Origin: Chlamydiia bacterium
GTDB taxonomy: Bacteria > Chlamydiota > Chlamydiia > Chlamydiales > Parachlamydiaceae
Length of the DNA: 11,709 nt
Assembly (NCBI GenBank): GCA_038257035.1
Contig: JBBSJT010000076.1
Coordinates: 1-11,709, forward strand
Reading direction: 5' to 3'
Part shown: piece after piece, positions 1,003 through 11,700 of the stretch
How the letters are laid out: each line of letters begins with the position of its first letter
Numbering within the stretch: position 1 is the first letter of the stretch
Program-made: the position numbers and the translations under genes
The notes under the pieces: model-generated
What the model was told of the DNA's origin: nothing
What the model saw: the letters and a program-made list of their open reading frames with translations, nothing else
Database searches by the model: none

Positions 1003-2030
1003 ATACTCATTTTGTCTCCAATTATTGGCCTCACATTAATACCTTGCCTCCGGAAATTGTAAATATTATTTTTTCTGATCATGATTTTTTAATGACTCAT
1101 TCGGTCAATCAGAAATGCAGGGAAGTTTTTAAAGAGACACTACAAATGGAAGAGGTGCAAAAAAAAGGCGTTTACCAAAAAAGCTTATTGCTAGAGGGGA
1201 TAAGGCTCATTTCTGATCTTGAAGACATCAAGAACAAAAAAAGGCTAAAAACAATTCATCAGGCATATTTTGATAAAAAATGTTATTTTTTTGGTGAAAG
1301 TAAATGGAATAAAACTGTTTGGGACCTTTACTGCAATGTTTTAGACAATTTGGAAAAAAATAAAAAAGGCAAATCCTGGAACCTTTTAAAAGCATTGGCT
1401 ATTAATAATGAAGGTGCAGCTATAGCAATCAAAGCCGTAAAAGCATTTGATGGTGGTTCAAGAGATTGTATCAGTAAATTTAAGATAGACGACCTTTGTA
1501 TCATAGCTTACAAAATAAAAAGCGAGCAAGCCATTTATTTTGCAGTTGGAGGCAAGGAAAAATTTCATCAGTTAAGTATTTTTGAAGTTGCTCATAAATA
1601 CTTGGGAATGGGATTTTCTGTCATGCGGGGGATCGATGAACGAGAGGGAATCCTTCACCCCTTTATTGCAATCCAATATAAAAACCCTTTAATGGACAAT
1701 AGAGTAGAGATCGCTTTTTTTAATTGTGCTTTGGGTTTAGATCCATCCAGTGCAGATTATGGTAACTGGTCTTTTTCTGGCAAATTGGAAAGAGGTAAGG
1801 CAGGATTATTATCAAAGTATTCGCGATCATATGTAACAAAAGACAAATGGCCTACCCAATACAAGTATCATTGTGAGTATAATAAAACTACTGAATACCT
1901 TTTTTTATCAACTTCCTTTTGCCTACAACATCCTTGGGTGGCTCCGCTACAACAATTGTTCACAACCGGCCATTGCCCCGTCTACCCCAACGACCCCCAA
2001 AGCCCCCAGTACGAGCTCGTTGCACAGTAG
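999..2030 (+). CDS. Hypothetical protein with N-terminal F-box-like motif (candidate effector)
   Basis: 343-aa ORF overlapping the uvrC stop (ATGA). Residues ~13-43, INTLPPEIVNIIFS...SVNQKCREV, resemble the F-box consensus LPxEIxxxIFS...VxKxW. The remainder is not recognised. Confidence 0.6.
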   Translation: MNTHFVSNYWPHINTLPPEIVNIIFSDHDFLMTHSVNQKCREVFKETLQMEEVQKKGVYQKSLLLEGIRLISDLEDIKNKKRLKTIHQAYFDKKCYFFGESKWNKTVWDLYCNVLDNLEKNKKGKSWNLLKALAINNEGAAIAIKAVKAFDGGSRDCISKFKIDDLCIIAYKIKSEQAIYFAVGGKEKFHQLSIFEVAHKYLGMGFSVMRGIDEREGILHPFIAIQYKNPLMDNRVEIAFFNCALGLDPSSADYGNWSFSGKLERGKAGLLSKYSRSYVTKDKWPTQYKYHCEYNKTTEYLFLSTSFCLQHPWVAPLQQLFTTGHCPVYPNDPQSPQYELVAQ

Positions 2031-2041
2031 GGTGCTGTGCT

Positions 2042-2126
2042 TTGTAGCGTAGGTTTTAACCTGCGCATGTTCAACGGGTTTTAACCCGTTGCCTTGCACG
2101 CATGCAGGTTAAAACCTACGCTACAA
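2042..2126. repeat. REP doublet (REPIN-like), GTAG family A
   Basis: Perfect 23-bp inverted repeat (2042-2064 / 2104-2126). Each arm is GTAG plus the palindrome CGTAGGTT-TT-AACCTGC(G). A central hairpin CAACGGGTT-TT-AACCCGTTG lies at 2072-2091. A near-identical single arm recurs at 8777. Confidence 0.85.
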
Positions 2127-2205
2127 GCTAGTCATAAAAAAGATTTCAAACAAATTCTTCTTGTGATACAAATATTTTTAATCCAAAAAAAAGAAGGGAT
2201 TTAAC

Positions 2206-2496
2206 ATGTTTGTACCATCAACTTTTTCAAGAATAATAGCTCCTAGAATTGGCTTTCAATCTCTGCAATCTACATTTTGCAATAAGCCACAACCGGAAAA
2301 CCAAAAAATTATAGAATTAGGAGATCAATTTTTTAAAGTACAAACAGAAGAATATAAAAATAATAAAAGAACTTTTGAAACCATTCATAAAGATATTGTG
2401 GGCTCTCCATTTTATAATGCTATATTGGTCGTCCTTTTTTGCGTATCAATAACAGGTTTTTTTAATGATAAAGCATTCAATCGTGATTACTATTAA
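2206..2496 (+). CDS. Small hypothetical protein with C-terminal transmembrane helix
   Basis: 96-aa ORF with purine-rich RBS-like GAAGGGA (2193-2199) and hydrophobic segment AILVVLFCVSITGFF near the C-terminus. Confidence 0.6.
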   Translation: MFVPSTFSRIIAPRIGFQSLQSTFCNKPQPENQKIIELGDQFFKVQTEEYKNNKRTFETIHKDIVGSPFYNAILVVLFCVSITGFFNDKAFNRDYY

Positions 2497-2664
2497 TTCT
2501 TTAAAGGATCTTTGTATACACATGAGTTATTATAAAAAGCCTCGGAAGCACTTTCAGGACGGTGGATATGTTCTTTTTGTCCTTTAAGTCCTTGAAAAAT
2601 CCCCAAAAGAAACTCCCATTAAAAACACTAAAAAACCCGAACACTTTTTTTAACTAAAAAAAAC

Positions 2665-2693
2665 TTGCACAAATTTTTGCATTCAGCTATGCT
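2665..2693 (+). promoter_or_regulatory. Sigma70/sigma66-type promoter for tRNA-Val and probably the downstream gene
   Basis: TTGCAC (2665-2670), 17-nt spacer, TATGCT (2688-2693). It is preceded by A/T tracts (UP-element-like) and ends 13 nt before the tRNA. Confidence 0.7.
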
Positions 2694-2706
2694 TTTGCCT
2701 TCTAAT

Positions 2707-2780
2707 GGGGTATTAGCTCAATTGGTTAGAGCGCCACGTCGACATCGTGGAGGTCAGCTGTTCGAGTCAGCTATACCCCA
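2707..2780 (+). tRNA. tRNA-Val (anticodon GAC), CCA not encoded
   Basis: Cloverleaf: acceptor GGGGTAT/ATACCCC plus A73, D arm GCTC/GAGC, anticodon arm CCACG-TCGACAT-CGTGG, T arm AGCTG-TTCGAGT-CAGCT. Confidence 0.95.
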
Positions 2781-2804
2781 TTTTTTATACTTACAGTAAT
2801 TTTC

Positions 2805-4313
2805 ATGAAATCATTTCCATCTAATCAAATTCCGGTCCAACAGATTCAAAGGGTAGCTGCTGAAGTCTTAGCTTCTGCTATTTTAGAAATTTTTCCGGAT
2901 GCCGTTCTTGTTTCAGGAAATGCAACAGACCTTGATTTTTACTACGATTTTCAGTTCAAGCAGCCATTATCAGAAGAAAATCTTTTTTTGGTAGAAGAGC
3001 GCATGAGGGGAATCATCAAAGAAAGCAAGCCTGTTGAAATGCTCGAAATGATGCGCCAAAATGCGATTGGCTTATTTCGTCATCAAAATCAGCCCTATAA
3101 AATTGATGAATTAGAACTTATATCCGACAATATCGTTCAAATATGGAAGATGGGGGATTTTTATGATGTGTGCAAACCTCCTTACGGCTCTTCTTCCGAT
3201 ATAGCGCAAGCTTTTAAACTTCAAAAGGTTGAGAGAAAAACGATTGCCATTCCTTTCTTTAAATCAGGCACGAAACAGTATAAAAAATCTCAAGTGATCA
3301 GAATACGCGGAACTGCATGGTCAAATAAGGCTGACTTAAAAGATTATTTGAAAAAAACTGAAAAAGGTAAAAGAAAAGATCACCAGGCTCTTGGACTTGA
3401 TATGGGTCTTTATACTTTTGAAGATGAAGTTTTCCCGAATGAGCCTTGCTGGCTGCCAAAAGGAATGGAAATCAGAGAATCTCTATTAAATTTTTTAAAA
3501 AGCCAAGATCAGCTCTTAGGATTCGCCCAAGTTTTGACGCCAAATTTAGTGAAACCTTCGTTTTTAACCAAAACAAATCCGCACAAATCAGACGAAAACG
3601 AGTGTGTGCCAATCATTGAAATTGAAAGCGACGATTACCAATTTATTTCAGAAAAAACAGGCGTACATGCCTTGCTTTTTAATAAAAGTCGCCACCAAGA
3701 AAAAGATTTGCCTGTCCGATACGCCGAGAGGCATAGCTGTTTTTTTGAAGGGTCAGAGGCTGAACTTAATGGACTTTTTCAGACAAGAATTTATTTGACC
3801 GATCAAGCACATATTTTTTGTACAGAAACTCAAGTTGTTGAGGAGCTTATTTCGGCTTTGCGTTTAATAGATCAAACAGTTAGAATTTCGGGGTTGAAAT
3901 TAGAGTATGTGCTAAAAAATAAAAAAGATAAAACGCATTTGTCCAAAGGGTATAAATGGTTAGAAAATGCGTTAAATGCTGTTGATTTTCAATTTATCGT
4001 TGACAAAGAGAACGACAACATTTATGCTACTCATGGAAAAGGCTTAATCCATCAAGGTCCAAGAATTGAAGTGGTGTTGATCGATGAGCTTGGACGTAGA
4101 TGGTTGATTTCTTCCCTCGGGGTAGATTCGGCTACGTCAAGTTACTTAGGGTTAAATTACCTGAACAAAGATGGTCAAAAAGAACCACCGGTGATCATCT
4201 TTAGATCGGTATTTAACTCGTTAGAGCGTTTTATTGCCTTGCTCGTCGAAAATAAGACGAGAGAGCTAAAAATTAGTGAGCAAGCAGAACTACTTCCTTC
4301 ATGGTTTAATTAA
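2805..4313 (+). CDS. Threonyl-tRNA synthetase-like protein, degenerate (no TGS domain, no anticodon-binding domain, catalytic residues altered)
   Basis: Recognisable ThrRS blocks FYYDF, FYDVCKPPY, RIRGTAW, KDHQALG, WLPKG, DLPVRYAE, DQAHIFC, GPRIE and SLERFIALLVE. It lies upstream of infC, where thrS normally sits. Confidence 0.9.
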   Translation: MKSFPSNQIPVQQIQRVAAEVLASAILEIFPDAVLVSGNATDLDFYYDFQFKQPLSEENLFLVEERMRGIIKESKPVEMLEMMRQNAIGLFRHQNQPYKIDELELISDNIVQIWKMGDFYDVCKPPYGSSSDIAQAFKLQKVERKTIAIPFFKSGTKQYKKSQVIRIRGTAWSNKADLKDYLKKTEKGKRKDHQALGLDMGLYTFEDEVFPNEPCWLPKGMEIRESLLNFLKSQDQLLGFAQVLTPNLVKPSFLTKTNPHKSDENECVPIIEIESDDYQFISEKTGVHALLFNKSRHQEKDLPVRYAERHSCFFEGSEAELNGLFQTRIYLTDQAHIFCTETQVVEELISALRLIDQTVRISGLKLEYVLKNKKDKTHLSKGYKWLENALNAVDFQFIVDKENDNIYATHGKGLIHQGPRIEVVLIDELGRRWLISSLGVDSATSSYLGLNYLNKDGQKEPPVIIFRSVFNSLERFIALLVENKTRELKISEQAELLPSWFN

Positions 4314-4324
4314 ATAAGCCATAG

Positions 4325-4494
4325 AAGTTGAAGGTGTTTTAAGCGATTAGAATGAAAAAAAAATCCTTTGCATATTGATTGCAGAGGATAAAGAAGAAAA
4401 AAATGGCACTGTGAAAGTGGCTCTTTAATAAAAAGGGTTAACCGATCAGGGAATGGTTCTTAGTTCTTTTATCAAGAAATTGAAAGAAGAGTAA
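4325..4494 (+). pseudogene. Decayed remnant of the ThrRS C-terminal anticodon-binding domain
   Basis: 4372-4494 translates ILIAEDKEEKNGTVKVAL**KGLTDQGMVLSSFIKKLKEE*, resembling the ThrRS C-terminus (..lvvGdkE.e.gtVsvR....dlG.m.l.efi.kl.eE*). 4325-4363 in another frame reads KLKVF*AIRMKKK. Confidence 0.7.
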
Positions 4495-4536
4495 AAAATC
4501 AGGCCGGCCATTTCAAATGAGGAGATAGGAAGTCGG

Positions 4537-5100
4537 TTGAGAGTTAACAGAGAAATACGCGCTCCAAAAGTTCGCGTTATAAGCCAGACCGGAGAACAAA
4601 TTGGCGTCCTAGCGCTTTACGAAGCATTAGCTATGGCCGAACAAGATGGACTTGACCTTGTTGAAATCTCACCGGGTGCAAGCCCGCCTGTTTGTAAGAT
4701 CATAAATTACGGAAAATTCCGTTATGATCAAACCAAACGGGAAAAAGAAAGTAAAAAGGCGCAGCATCAAGTTAAAATTAAAGAAGTCAAGCTTAAACCG
4801 AATATTGACGACAATGACTTTCAAACTAAAATGCGCCATGCACGCGACTTTGTTACTAAAGGTAATAAAGTTAAAGTGTCATGCGTTTTTCGCGGAAGAG
4901 AGATGGCTCATCCAGAAATTGGACAACGTTTAGTTGACAAATTCTGTGAAGACCTCGCCGATATTGCAACGGTTGAAGCTCCGGCGAAAATGTTTGGAAG
5001 AATGTTAACTGCTGTTTTGGCACCTGGAATGAAGAAGAAAAAAGAGGAACCAAGACAGGGACAAGACCCGTCACATTCAGAAATGAACAAAAACGGATAA
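4537..5100 (+). CDS. infC: Translation initiation factor IF-3 (start codon uncertain: TTG 4537 or upstream ATC/ATT)
   Basis: Motifs [47 protein letters not shown] and [12 protein letters not shown]. Confidence 0.98.
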
Positions 5101-5200
5101 ATGAGAGATAATTGACTAAAACTCCTTGTGAAATGATTTTTTGAAGTCGTTTTACTTTAAGAGAGTTTAAATAAGAGTGATTATCGAGGGGAAGTTACAA

Positions 5201-5843: not shown

Positions 5844-5869
5844 ATTAAAATTTTTGTGAATTGGTGAAT

Positions 5870-6889
5870 ATGGAAAATTCGATTGAAGCACTACGAACTG
5901 AATTTATAAATGAAATCAAAGCTGTCGATTCCTTAAATGACCTTGAACAGTTAAAAGTCAAATATCTCGGTAAAAAAGGACCGATTCAAAATCTGATGAA
6001 GGAACTACAAAGTGTTCCTAAAGAAAATCGCCCCGAGTGTGGCAAATTCATAAACGACCTTAAAGTCTATCTTTCAAGTCAAATTGAAAACTTGGAAATC
6101 AGCCTAACCGAATCAGAAGAAAAGAAACAGCTTGAAAATGAAAAAATCGACATTTCTTTGCCAGGCAAAAAGCGCTTTGTCGCACGAAAGCACCTTATCT
6201 CTCAAGTATTGGACGATCTCTTAAATATTTTTAAAGAGATGGGCTTTTCTGTTCAATATGGCCCCGATATGGACTCTGACTACTACAATTTTGAAGCGCT
6301 TAATTTTTCTTCCGATCATCCTGCGCGCGATATGCAAGATACTTTTTATATATCCTCCAATATGTTGTTAAGAACACATACAAGTAACATTCAAGCGCGT
6401 ATCATGGAGACTGAAAAGCCTCCTATTCGTATTGTTGCGCCTGGGCGTGCTTATCGAAATGAAACAATTACAACAAGATCCCACGTCTTTTTCCATCAAA
6501 TCGAAGGTTTTTTTGTAGATAAGCAAGTAACGTTTGCCGACTTAAGAGCTACTATGGACGAATTTTTAGCTAAATTTTTTGGGCCTGATGTGGAAACAAG
6601 ATTTCGCCCAAGTTACTTTCCTTTTGTAGAACCAGGTCTTGAGCTTGATATTGGTTGCATTAGTTGTAAACGTGCGGGCTGTCAGCTTTGCAAACAGACC
6701 GGTTGGCTAGAAATTCTTGGTGCCGGTATGATTCATCCTGAAGTTTTAAAAAATGGCGACATTGACCCTGAAATTTACTCAGGCTATGCTTTTGGAATGG
6801 GGATTGAACGTATTGTTATGTTAAAATATGGTATTAAAGACATCCGTCTTTTTACTGAAAATGATCTTAGATTTTTACAGCAGTTTTAA
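5870..6889 (+). CDS. pheS: Phenylalanine--tRNA ligase alpha subunit (start could be 5861 or 5864)
   Basis: Motifs YLGKKG, NFEALN..DHPARDMQDTFY, LLRTHTS, FHQIEG, RFRPSYFPFVEP, CxxC..CxxC, WLEILGAGMIHP and GYAFGMGIER. Confidence 0.99.
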   Translation: MENSIEALRTEFINEIKAVDSLNDLEQLKVKYLGKKGPIQNLMKELQSVPKENRPECGKFINDLKVYLSSQIENLEISLTESEEKKQLENEKIDISLPGKKRFVARKHLISQVLDDLLNIFKEMGFSVQYGPDMDSDYYNFEALNFSSDHPARDMQDTFYISSNMLLRTHTSNIQARIMETEKPPIRIVAPGRAYRNETITTRSHVFFHQIEGFFVDKQVTFADLRATMDEFLAKFFGPDVETRFRPSYFPFVEPGLELDIGCISCKRAGCQLCKQTGWLEILGAGMIHPEVLKNGDIDPEIYSGYAFGMGIERIVMLKYGIKDIRLFTENDLRFLQQF

Positions 6890-9018: not shown

Positions 9019-9603
9019 TTACAGACCTATAAGCTGCACGTTGTTTTTGAAAAAATCATCGATTTTTTTGATTGCAGCATCTTCGTTTAAATCAGGTTTT
9101 AAGCGAATGGTATATTGAACACCGGCAGCATCAAAAGGACCTGAAATGTATTTTGCACCAATGATTTCTTGTTTTTGCTGAGTTCTGTAGCGCATTAAAA
9201 AATAGGCTTCTTCAATGTTTTTATTTATTGAAGATGTATCAGCAATCAATTTAATGCCTTTAGCTTCAGACATCATTTGTATTTTGACCATACCTGCAAA
9301 TGTTTTTGCTGAAATCTTTTGACCGATGAATTTATTCACTGTAATGATTTCGCTCCAATTATTCTCACTATCATTTTGAGGAATGTATTCGATCATGACT
9401 TGTTCACGTTTACCAAATGCATCTAAAGGCTGTAAAGGTTTATAACCTTTTGGAATAGTAACGCTTAAGTTTATTGGCTGTTTGGTGACGTCAATTGGCA
9501 AAAGAAAAGTCGGTTGAAATGCCTCAATTTCCTTTTCCGTTAATTCAGCACCAAAAATCGGGGTAATCGCAAACATTGCAAATATTAAATATAAAATTGG
9601 CAT
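9019..9603 (-). CDS. Hypothetical exported protein
   Basis: 194-aa ORF with a hydrophobic N-terminus (MPILYLIFAMFAITPIFGA) resembling a signal peptide and an AGGA RBS upstream. It lies 11 bp downstream of the preceding minus-strand gene. Confidence 0.8.
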   Translation of the reverse strand: MPILYLIFAMFAITPIFGAELTEKEIEAFQPTFLLPIDVTKQPINLSVTIPKGYKPLQPLDAFGKREQVMIEYIPQNDSENNWSEIITVNKFIGQKISAKTFAGMVKIQMMSEAKGIKLIADTSSINKNIEEAYFLMRYRTQQKQEIIGAKYISGPFDAAGVQYTIRLKPDLNEDAAIKKIDDFFKNNVQLIGL

Positions 9604-9614
9604 CTTGTGTTCCT

Positions 9615-10739
9615 TTATTTTTTTGTGGTTAATAAATCAAAATCGACATACTCTTCGGCCAACCGTATCGCACGCTCGATCTTTACTGTATCACCGGTGC
9701 GCGTTTTTGCAATAAATGATGTGATCATCTTCATCGCATCATAACTGCAGATAGGGGCGTAGAGGGTTGGAATGTCATGCTGTTTGATTGTTTCCACAAT
9801 TTTTTGACTTGGAGGCTGGCGGCCGGTAAGAATAATTCCACCTTCTAAATCCACTCCATCCTTTTTTTTCACTTCAGAATGTTTTTCAAGCGTTTTAAGA
9901 ATGATATCCTCGCGGCTTGCCGGTGTAATAATCAATTCATTTGGCATGATTTCTTCCATATAGGATTCAAGTGAACCTGCTACCAATCTTGGATTTTGAA
10001 AATGACGGTAACGATGTTTTTTTCCTGAAATAAGCTCTGCATTAAAAAGTGTTTCAAAGTCTTCAATTGCGGGTGTATTTAAAAGATCGTTAAAGGGGAC
10101 AATGCCGAGTAGGGGGATATTCCATTGTTGTAAAACTTTGGGGAAATATTCTTCAATCATGGCGCGTTTATTATCGTGCACGCGATTTAAAATGACACCC
10201 CTAATATTGGCGCCATGTTCACGGCAAAGAGCAATATTTAAGGAAAGCTCATCAAAGGTTGATCCCAATCCTCCGGAAGCAATGATCACCATATCAACCC
10301 CTAGCATTGCCGCAATTTTTGCATTGTTGAGCCCTAGAATGGAGCCGACTCCTACGTGTCCTGTTCCTTCAACAACAGTAAAGGCATTTTCCTGATAGAT
10401 TTTTTTAAAGGAGGTTTCAATGTTTTCTATAAGTTTGCTTGCATCGACTTTATGATCTATAAAATCACGCGTAAATCCTGCAGGAACAATGACAGGGCTC
10501 ATATCTTGCCAATCACTTGCAAGTTTAAAATGTTCTTTAAAAAGCACAACATCTTTATCTACAATGATTTCATCATTGATTCGCACATGTTGCTGCCCCA
10601 TCGGTTTGATAAATCCGACTGTTGAATATCTTTTCTTGAGCGCTGCAATAATACCAAGTGAGAGTGTTGATTTTCCAACATTCTGCCCTGTTGCTGCAAT
10701 AAATATGGCGTTTTTATTATTCATTAAATTTCTCTTCAT
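9615..10739 (-). CDS. BioD-like P-loop plus DRTGG domain protein (stand-alone phosphotransacetylase N-terminal region)
   Basis: IFIAATGQNVGKST (Walker A), VGFIKPMGQ, VVEGTGH, GVILNRV, LIITPASREDII and GGIILTG. No PTA catalytic domain. The start may be the second Met (10724). Confidence 0.85.
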   Translation of the reverse strand: MKRNLMNNKNAIFIAATGQNVGKSTLSLGIIAALKKRYSTVGFIKPMGQQHVRINDEIIVDKDVVLFKEHFKLASDWQDMSPVIVPAGFTRDFIDHKVDASKLIENIETSFKKIYQENAFTVVEGTGHVGVGSILGLNNAKIAAMLGVDMVIIASGGLGSTFDELSLNIALCREHGANIRGVILNRVHDNKRAMIEEYFPKVLQQWNIPLLGIVPFNDLLNTPAIEDFETLFNAELISGKKHRYRHFQNPRLVAGSLESYMEEIMPNELIITPASREDIILKTLEKHSEVKKKDGVDLEGGIILTGRQPPSQKIVETIKQHDIPTLYAPICSYDAMKMITSFIAKTRTGDTVKIERAIRLAEEYVDFDLLTTKK

Positions 10740-11465: not shown

Positions 11466-11564
11466 CACCGGGGACCTTGTGGAATAGATCAATCCGAACC
11501 AGGTCAGAGCAGGAATGCAGCAGCCTTAAGGACCTTGATTTATGCCTCGAGACAATCTCCGGTG
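11466..11564 (+). ncRNA. ffs: Signal recognition particle RNA (small 4.5S type)
   Basis: Terminal helix CACCGGGGA / TCTCCGGTG and helix-8 motif GGTCAGA-GCA-GGAA-TGC-AGCAGCC with GGAA tetraloop. Length is 99 nt. Confidence 0.92.
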
Positions 11565-11604
11565 TTCCTTTCCTTCTAATCAACACCATTTTCTCCAACA
11601 TTAA

Positions 11605-11700
11605 ATGCCGGTCTTTCAGACCTCAATTAAACTTTTATTTTATACCCAGGCCTCCGCTTCGCTCCGAACCTGGGCTATTATATGACGGTCCTTCGGACAT
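11605..11700. repeat. Three-hairpin palindromic element (family C), putative non-autonomous repeat
   Basis: Direct repeats ATGCCGGTCTTTCAGACCT (11605-11623) and ATGACGGTCCTTCGGACAT (11682-11700), 15/19 identical, flank a central stem CCCAGG...CCTGGG (11645-11674). Confidence 0.6.

Follow-up and report, generated by a model that had tools for sequence, protein, structure and literature searches.

The stretch of DNA analyzed here, which we call the window, is the whole 11,709-nt contig JBBSJT010000076.1 (C76 in our numbering) of GenBank assembly GCA_038257035.1 (genome G000), a draft assembly of 210 contigs, 95.8% complete, from a Chlamydiia bacterium of the family Parachlamydiaceae. On its forward strand, an open reading frame (ORF) of 502 uninterrupted codons followed by a stop codon (positions 2805-4313) occupies the position of thrS, the gene for threonyl-tRNA synthetase (ThrRS), with infC, rpmI, rplT and pheS, all recognized with Pfam, directly downstream, as an earlier prediction made from the sequence alone (the original prediction) had placed it. 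We conclude that the product is probably a ThrRS-derived pseudoenzyme, encoded by the ancestral thrS of the cluster, which lost its sites after a second thrS took over and may now serve as a dimeric binding or regulatory protein. With a GC content of 0.37, about 7% of random codons would be stops, and by our own arithmetic a 502-codon open run would arise by chance with a probability of ~1e-16.

Fold, domains and active sites of the ThrRS-like protein

Both sequence and fold place the ORF product in the class II aminoacyl-tRNA synthetase core superfamily (PF00587, tRNA-synt_2b; the G/H/P/S/T type). This core was the only Pfam domain found on the ORF (E = 2.1e-18, amino acids [aa] 274-483, 67.5 bits against a cut-off of 29.3). 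The NCBIfam thrS model TIGR00418 (threonine--tRNA ligase, EC 6.1.1.3) covered the ORF with profile positions 4-469 of 565 and scored 242.5 bits, below the cut-off of 383.65 that was exceeded in 14 of 14 control genomes, and a phmmer search against the Protein Data Bank (PDB) aligned aa 13-483 with residues 70-528 of Escherichia coli ThrRS (1qf6), which make up the N2 and catalytic domains (E = 1.9e-48). An AlphaFold (AF2) model built from 22 family members had a mean predicted local distance difference test (pLDDT) score of 83.2 and a predicted template modeling (pTM) score of 0.75. When this model was compared with the PDB by means of Foldseek, the best matches were ThrRS structures, and the catalytic part superimposed with a root mean square deviation of 2.6-2.9 Å over ~300 columns. 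The N2 and class II folds are thus kept, and the structural comparison bears out the assignment to ThrRS made in the original prediction.

Of the domain set of ThrRS (TGS, N2, core and anticodon binding), the ORF carries only two members, the N2, or editing-domain-like, part (2832-3329; aa 10-175, corresponding to 1qf6 residues 70 to ~230 and modeled mostly at a pLDDT of 84-95) and the class II catalytic-core fold (3405-4259; aa 201-485, delimited with PF00587 and Foldseek). There is no TGS domain, the alignment beginning at E. coli residue 70; moreover, the ORF starts 23 nt past the tRNA-Val(GAC) gene, so that there is no room for one. At the other end, the ORF terminates at the point where an anticodon domain would be expected to follow. 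The absence of both domains from the ORF had been predicted, and to this we can add a decayed remnant of the C terminus of the anticodon-binding domain, which tblastn located at 4357-4488 of the forward strand, out of frame with the ORF. It is broken by two stop codons, and its 44 aa are 43% identical to the anticodon-domain end of the same-genus relative G002. G002 and a further same-genus relative, G001, retain the domain, and the truncation therefore arose within the genus. In a strain ~94% identical to that of the window (metagenome run X5), 4 bases are missing at the stop codon (4311-4314), so that the C terminus of the protein varies between close strains.

The alignment to 1qf6 confirmed every residue change listed in the original prediction and added two more, E365G and D383Q. 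In the editing site of N2, both histidines of the first motif are replaced (H73 by R16 and H77 by E20), as is H186 (by Y127), with C182 kept as C123; the GAYW motif and Y168 of N2 are lost too. Among C334, H385 and H511, which we take to form the catalytic zinc site, the first and last are replaced (by T285 and F466) and H385 is kept (H336). Motif 2 and the threonine site have lost R363 (F314), E365 (G316) and D383 (Q334). The class II motif-3 arginine, R520, is retained as R475, as it is in 28 of 33 family members. With two of three zinc ligands, the arginine and glutamate of motif 2, D383 and both editing histidines replaced, the paralog does appear catalytically dead, as had been proposed, and the substitutions strongly suggest that it would be unable to charge tRNA or to edit.

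We also aligned 33 infC-linked and 15 canonical chlamydial copies with MAFFT and looked at these positions. C334, R363, E365, H385, H511 and R520 were each kept in 15 of 15 canonical copies; in the infC-linked copies C334 was kept in none, R363 in one, H511 in one and H385 in about half. For an outside control we used 70 of 74 loci from other genomes, four being set aside because they were short or interrupted. The 64 non-chlamydial ThrRS sequences in this set all kept each of H73, H77, C182, H186, C334, R363, E365 and H385, whereas the remaining 6 loci, which are chlamydial, did not.

A functional thrS was expected elsewhere in the genome, and contig C54 of G000 does begin inside a canonical thrS. 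Its last 198 aa are assembled (266.4 bits to TIGR00418 positions 384-562) and share 83% identity with the canonical G002 copy, with H511 present and the anticodon domain following; the first ~447 residues were not found in the G000 draft assembly. Two ThrRS-type matches, a canonical one of ~640-670 aa elsewhere and the infC-linked copy, were present in 37 of 40 relatives, the three with a single match being G016, G034 and G038. The arrangement is thus that of a HisZ-like pseudoenzyme, a synthetase fold lacking the catalytic residues beside an active enzyme, the active copy of G000 being represented by the 198-aa fragment only. The 668-codon "canonical" thrS of one relative, G023 (locus L016, on contig C168 of that genome), has Gln at the position of H77 and groups with other bacteria, not with the chlamydial canonical copies; either transfer or contamination during binning could be the cause.

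Conservation of the gene and selection on its product

The ThrRS-like gene of the dead type was verified in 36 of the 40 relatives, of which 24 belong to the same family as G000 and 16 to other families. Two of the others were not counted either way: G014, which is 57% complete, and G035, in which a candidate match was not examined. infC-rpmI-rplT lay directly downstream of the gene in 34 of the 36, and in the other two the contig ended first. tRNA-Val(GAC) was the sole tRNA in the loci of all 37 relatives scanned, and in 34 of 34 loci it immediately preceded the ORF in the same orientation, the median distance to the ORF start being ~20 nt; in several relatives uvrC lay upstream of the ThrRS-like gene. 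A 70-genome sample of the class held the gene in many families; the single TAA of G000 in this sample is the natural terminal stop, and a single TAA was not by itself counted as a break, G024 being the one copy checked for one. The position of the gene is conserved across most families of environmental chlamydiae. An apparent frameshift and stops in the G001 copy, considered as signs of a broken gene, coincide with a run of N and were rejected as such.

The gene is under purifying selection at the protein level. We collected the orthologs upstream of infC and computed omega, the ratio of nonsynonymous to synonymous substitution rates (dN/dS), which was well below 1 throughout, and the copies translated were open save that of G024. 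For the pair G000-G002 omega was 0.23 (Nei-Gojobori; dS near saturation), with values of 0.07-0.09 for the neighboring genes. Six close pairs from another family, encoding forms of 386 to 465 codons, gave 0.09-0.14 at a dS of 0.48-0.72, infC in the same six pairs giving 0.03-0.12, and one further close pair gave 0.17 at a dS of 0.058. At the level of strains, we compared contigs of three metagenome runs from ~94% identical strains, in which the best-supported 40 differences were listed and 241 further ones were present. Among the best-supported 40, 38 lie in the ORF, at the third (32), first (4) or second (2) codon position. Of the indels listed, none falls in the 1506-nt ORF and all 12 fall in the 184 nt of 4311-4494, where the anticodon-domain remnant lies. 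Selection rather than decay, as had been suggested for the window gene, thus accounts for the values of omega (0.09-0.23), the third-position bias and the presence of a copy in 36 of 40 relatives with one disrupted; in being kept by purifying selection the gene again resembles HisZ.

A probable counterpart exists in Protochlamydia amoebophila UWE25, in which pc0701 ("thrS_1") lies directly before infC (pc0702) and a complete thrS_2 (pc2015) is present elsewhere (Koenig et al. 2017, PMC5451489). We base the equivalence on where the gene lies and how it is annotated. In that study, pc0701 is entered as a "putative threonine-tRNA ligase" with HGTP_anticodon as its sole Pfam match, unlike the window copy, from which this domain has been lost; pc0701 seems to retain it. 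According to supplementary file 2 of the same paper, pc0701 is constitutively transcribed at a log2 RPKM (read numbers scaled per kilobase and per million) of 14.5-15.6, compared with 11.3-12.1 for infC and 8.9-10.3 for thrS_2. The high value may be inflated by reads from the abutting tRNA-Val gene; tRNA genes are not in that table, and the text passages at hand do not discuss pc0701. For the window itself, contigs of metatranscriptome X16, whose library possibly contained DNA, covered 2773-2926 at a depth of 2, 4338-4516 at a depth of 65 and 4584-5145 at a depth of 36; no contig lay over the body of the ORF, and contigs cannot rank expression.

Origin, possible role and rival explanations

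The position of the gene bears on its origin. We found tRNA-Val(GAC) 5' of a catalytically intact thrS in 9 non-chlamydial loci (L069, L071, L074, L076, L079, L083, L087, L098 and L100), including loci from Acidithiobacillus, Omnitrophota, Elusimicrobiota, a gammaproteobacterium and Myxococcales, and infC lay downstream in 7 of the 9. This suggests that tRNA-Val-thrS-infC is an old unit and not a chlamydial peculiarity, and the chlamydial gene therefore occupies the old thrS slot. On the simplest reading, the ThrRS-like gene is most likely the original thrS, which was inactivated once another copy had taken on charging. The original prediction, in which the gene was an inactive paralog, thus holds as regards the pseudoenzyme, and the roles that it put forward (RNA binding, scaffolding or heterodimerization with the real ThrRS) are candidates. 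We would refine it on one point: rather than a late duplicate, the gene is probably the ancestral thrS, retained in its slot. In a phylogenetic tree, all 23 dead-type copies fell on one side of a branch of length 1.06 with an SH-aLRT support of 100, apart from all active ThrRS; this tree, with its long branches and quick search, does not tell duplication from transfer as the source of the active chlamydial copy.

What the family has kept gives some indication of what the protein may do. The positions of active ThrRS that survive are mostly structural or at the dimer interface (examples are P31, F45, Y47, R166, G169, D192-H193, P-K-G 218-220 and T-P 245-246, and further L-P 302-303, E308, G323 and the E-R-F motif), and the lost positions line both active sites. 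Invariants that are the family's own and absent from active enzymes cluster in N2, with M82 and N86 at 100%, M83, R84 and R68 at 91% and E20, in place of H77, at 78%; H93 is another of the family-specific residues. The anticodon domain, present in 17 of 23 copies, is the part most like active enzymes, with 14 of 21 conserved positions kept, compared with 14 of 49 in N2 and 25 of 84 in the core; the shortest forms (337-400 codons) consist of N2 and the front of the core, with little else recognizable. Modeled as a homodimer, the window protein gave an ipSAE of 0.79 (best control, 0.00) at the usual class II interface (aa 204-329), a score that shows likeness and not binding, because ThrRS dimers have already been solved and our own alignment was used. 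The homodimer runs agreed in at least 94% of contacts, with a partner pLDDT of at least 80, and, among proteins with solved structures, the ipSAE mark applied is reached by 20 of 30 pairs and by 1 of 23 single chains.

We propose the following course of events. A second, complete thrS would have taken over the charging of Thr-tRNA, after which the TGS domain and the sites for aminoacylation and editing would have disappeared from the copy in the slot, followed later, in the lineage of the window, by the anticodon domain. The product would form a homodimer by way of its preserved class II interface and act by binding rather than by catalysis, and our best guess is a translation-linked binding or regulatory protein that would be expressed together with tRNA-Val, IF3, L35 and L20. 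Because the remodeled N2 and the dimerizing front of the core are common to all members, the function is placed there. Relatives with a well-conserved anticodon domain would probably still grip a tRNA-Thr-like anticodon arm, which the truncated form of the window should be unable to do. In a more specific version, which we consider unlikely but worth stating, the original thrS of environmental chlamydiae would have become a dedicated noncatalytic regulator of translation, a dimer that would sense threonine-tRNA status, through the anticodon domain that most lineages retain or by pairing with the active ThrRS, and would steer the expression of tRNA-Val-infC-rpmI-rplT or the activity of ThrRS. 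If so, the regulatory moonlighting role known for E. coli ThrRS would have been split off into a gene of its own.

Several observations count against a functional pseudoenzyme conserved in the ancestral slot. The ThrRS-like gene evolves 4-5 times faster than canonical thrS (identities among G000, G001 and G002 are 43-51% and 83-89%, respectively, and 84-98% for uvrC, infC, L35 and L20), and the dead-type copies have long end branches in the tree. Length, measured from stop to stop, ranges from 337 to 621 aa among the relatives, losses of the anticodon domain have recurred across the family, the copy of the window included, and that of G024 carries an in-frame TAA at codon 424 of 581, the sole disrupted copy among those translated. 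The gene is absent from 2 of the 40 relatives (G026 and G028), where an unrelated gene is followed by tRNA-Val and then infC. The family profile found it in none of 22 Chlamydiaceae-like genomes of 1.0-1.3 Mb, a family that we take to be the Chlamydiaceae, and in 3 such genomes nothing within 3 kb upstream of infC matched the profile (positive control, 4e-177); in these three, tRNA-Val is inverted and ~2.4 kb away. The median pI of N2 is 5.2, more acidic than the 6.1-6.4 of active enzymes, and a new RNA-binding surface is therefore not favored; a basic shift of N2, as a hint of new RNA binding, had been considered and was rejected, no such shift being present. Finally, pc0701 of P. amoebophila was not detected in the elementary-body proteome, as far as the portions of the paper used here report it (PMC5451489).

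Some of this would also be expected from the main rival explanation, that the ORF is a translated spacer, that is, an inert protein whose frame is kept open and foldable because it lies between the strong tRNA-Val promoter and infC-rpmI-rplT, where breaks would cause polarity and an abundant misfolded product would be toxic. It would account for a tRNA-Val gene that abuts the ORF, for the highly variable length, the eroded domains and the rapid amino-acid change, for the two relatives in which the gene is missing and tRNA-Val stands directly 5' of infC, and, in the P. amoebophila data available to us, for a pc0701 with a very high RPKM that is yet missing from the elementary-body proteome. We nevertheless think it improbable. 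The omega of the six close pairs is in the ordinary range of functional proteins (infC in these pairs, 0.03-0.12), and the family has invariant residues of its own that active ThrRS does not have. In reduced genomes, a useless ORF of 1-1.8 kb would be expected to suffer in-frame deletion, whereas a frame of at least 337 codons persists in 36 of 40 relatives, and in the window the ThrRS-like stop codon is already followed by 224 untranslated bases before infC. In E. coli, moreover, an infC promoter lies inside the 3' end of thrS, and the chlamydial infC may likewise have a promoter of its own there.

A heterodimer is a more doubtful proposition. Here the dead subunit would modulate or titrate the active ThrRS by pairing with it at the class II interface that both share, in keeping with the conservation of W-x-P-K-G (216-220) and T-P (245-246) in dead and active copies alike, the location of these motifs in the modeled interface and the occurrence of dead and canonical copies together in the 37 relatives with two ThrRS-type matches. 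The fast divergence of one partner next to a slow one is, however, not what an obligate pair would lead us to expect, and the homodimer model is confident by itself. That the gene is simply a pseudogene on its way out has very little to recommend it. The anticodon domain has decayed in place through stops and indels, one relative (G024) has an in-frame stop, and pc0701 has no RefSeq locus tag in the tables of the P. amoebophila study that we drew on, but frames are open in all translated relatives but one, omega is well under 1, which already contradicts decay, and the listed strain differences fall at third positions (32 of 38), with listed indels confined to the 184 nt adjacent to the ORF. 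It is just as hard to believe that the protein has remained an enzyme, acting without zinc as a synthetase-like catalyst on a new substrate. Most copies have the motif-3 arginine and roughly half have H385, the model shows the pocket-forming fold intact, and synthetase paralogs with new chemistry, such as AsnA and EpmA, do exist. Against this, the motif-2 arginine that is invariant in class II enzymes is gone in 32 of 33 copies and the motif-2 glutamate in most, and the residues replacing the active site differ among copies, which is unlike a retooled active site.

Related systems and neighboring genes

Synthetase look-alikes that are inactive and have taken on new tasks are known with HisRS, GlyRS/ProRS-like and SerRS folds; HisZ is a HisRS-like regulatory subunit of ATP phosphoribosyltransferase, and the polymerase gamma accessory subunit and SLIMP are inactive class II paralogs. 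The ThrRS-derived protein shares with the HisZ-type paralogs a class II fold minus the aminoacylation residues, maintained by selection beside an active enzyme; those paralogs differ in having known partners and other gene contexts, and the chlamydial protein differs from them in being derived from ThrRS, in having a dead editing domain as well and in still standing in the original thrS slot. With bacterial ThrRS (E. coli 1qf6 and Staphylococcus aureus 1nyq) it has in common the N2 and class II core folds, the modeled dimer interface and the gene order tRNA-Val, thrS, infC, rpmI, rplT, pheS, but it is without TGS, the ORF is without an anticodon domain, C334, H511, R363, E365, D383, H73, H77 and H186 are replaced and the score is below the TIGR00418 cut-off. 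The mitochondrial large-ribosomal-subunit protein MRPL39 (4ce4, chain c), to which aa 43-141 gave a weak sequence match (E = 9.4e-4, phmmer against the PDB), likewise reuses an N2-type domain without editing in a translation setting; unlike the chlamydial protein, it retains a TGS-like part and has no synthetase core. The free-standing editing proteins of the AlaX type have a homologous N2 (second additional domain) fold, but they keep HxxxH and CxxxH and hydrolyze mischarged tRNA, whereas the chlamydial protein retains only the cysteine of these trans-editing motifs.

In exact look-ups, public records name members of the family "threonine--tRNA ligase" (Neochlamydia spp.), "hypothetical protein" or "tRNA ligase C-terminal domain-containing protein," and genome-based metabolic or phylogenomic work on chlamydiae may therefore count the dead gene as a second thrS. 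Full-text literature searches, which did not cover subscription journals, found no paper describing the family and no report of a bacterial ThrRS-derived family with dead synthetic and editing sites in the ancestral thrS slot. Members of the family range from 337 to ~620 codons, some having the anticodon domain and others lacking it. They form a natural series in which to ask what a synthetase scaffold serves once catalysis has gone, and cultivable amoeba symbionts exist in which its role could be tested.

The conserved head of the cluster is the tRNA-Val(GAC) gene at 2706-2781 on the forward strand (ARAGORN; Rfam tRNA, 64.3 bits). Downstream of the ThrRS-like gene, and also on the forward strand, lie infC (IF3; 4537-5100, Pfam IF3_N and IF3_C), rpmI (L35; 5177-5401), rplT (L20; 5428-5784) and pheS (5861-6889, tRNA-synt_2d, E = 1.4e-94). 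The infC frame at 4537 is listed with a TTG start; unusual start codons, serving autoregulation, are frequent in IF3 genes. Around the ThrRS-like gene, Rfam searches gave no leader or riboswitch, the only matches above the gathering score being tRNA and a signal recognition particle (SRP) RNA. A scan of 2000-5200 for promoter-like and terminator-like sites yielded no usable signal (11 promoter-like sites, compared with 8.2 ± 3.4 in shuffled sequences, and 5 terminator-like sites, compared with 2.3 ± 1.5).

The 3' part of uvrC (UvrC_RNaseH_dom, E = 1.8e-56), an upstream neighbor of the cluster in several relatives, occupies positions 1-1002 of the forward strand. Between uvrC and tRNA-Val, two forward-strand ORFs (999-2030, 343 aa, and 2206-2496, 96 aa) gave no Pfam or NCBIfam match; in G002 and some other relatives uvrC is much nearer to tRNA-Val than in the window. 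In P. amoebophila the gap between uvrC and tRNA-Val holds three early-expressed hypothetical genes, one of them for a putative inclusion-membrane protein, according to the sections of PMC5451489 that we used. Farther downstream in the window, the reverse strand encodes a 374-aa protein with AAA_26 and DRTGG domains and CbiA-like nucleotide binding (9615-10739), adjoined by a 194-aa ORF without assignment (9019-9603, reverse strand). The SRP RNA, of the bacterial small type, is at 11467-11566 on the forward strand (46.9 bits, gathering score 40), and a weak Acido-Lenti-1 match at 11645-11700 (27.6 bits) is under the gathering score of 37.

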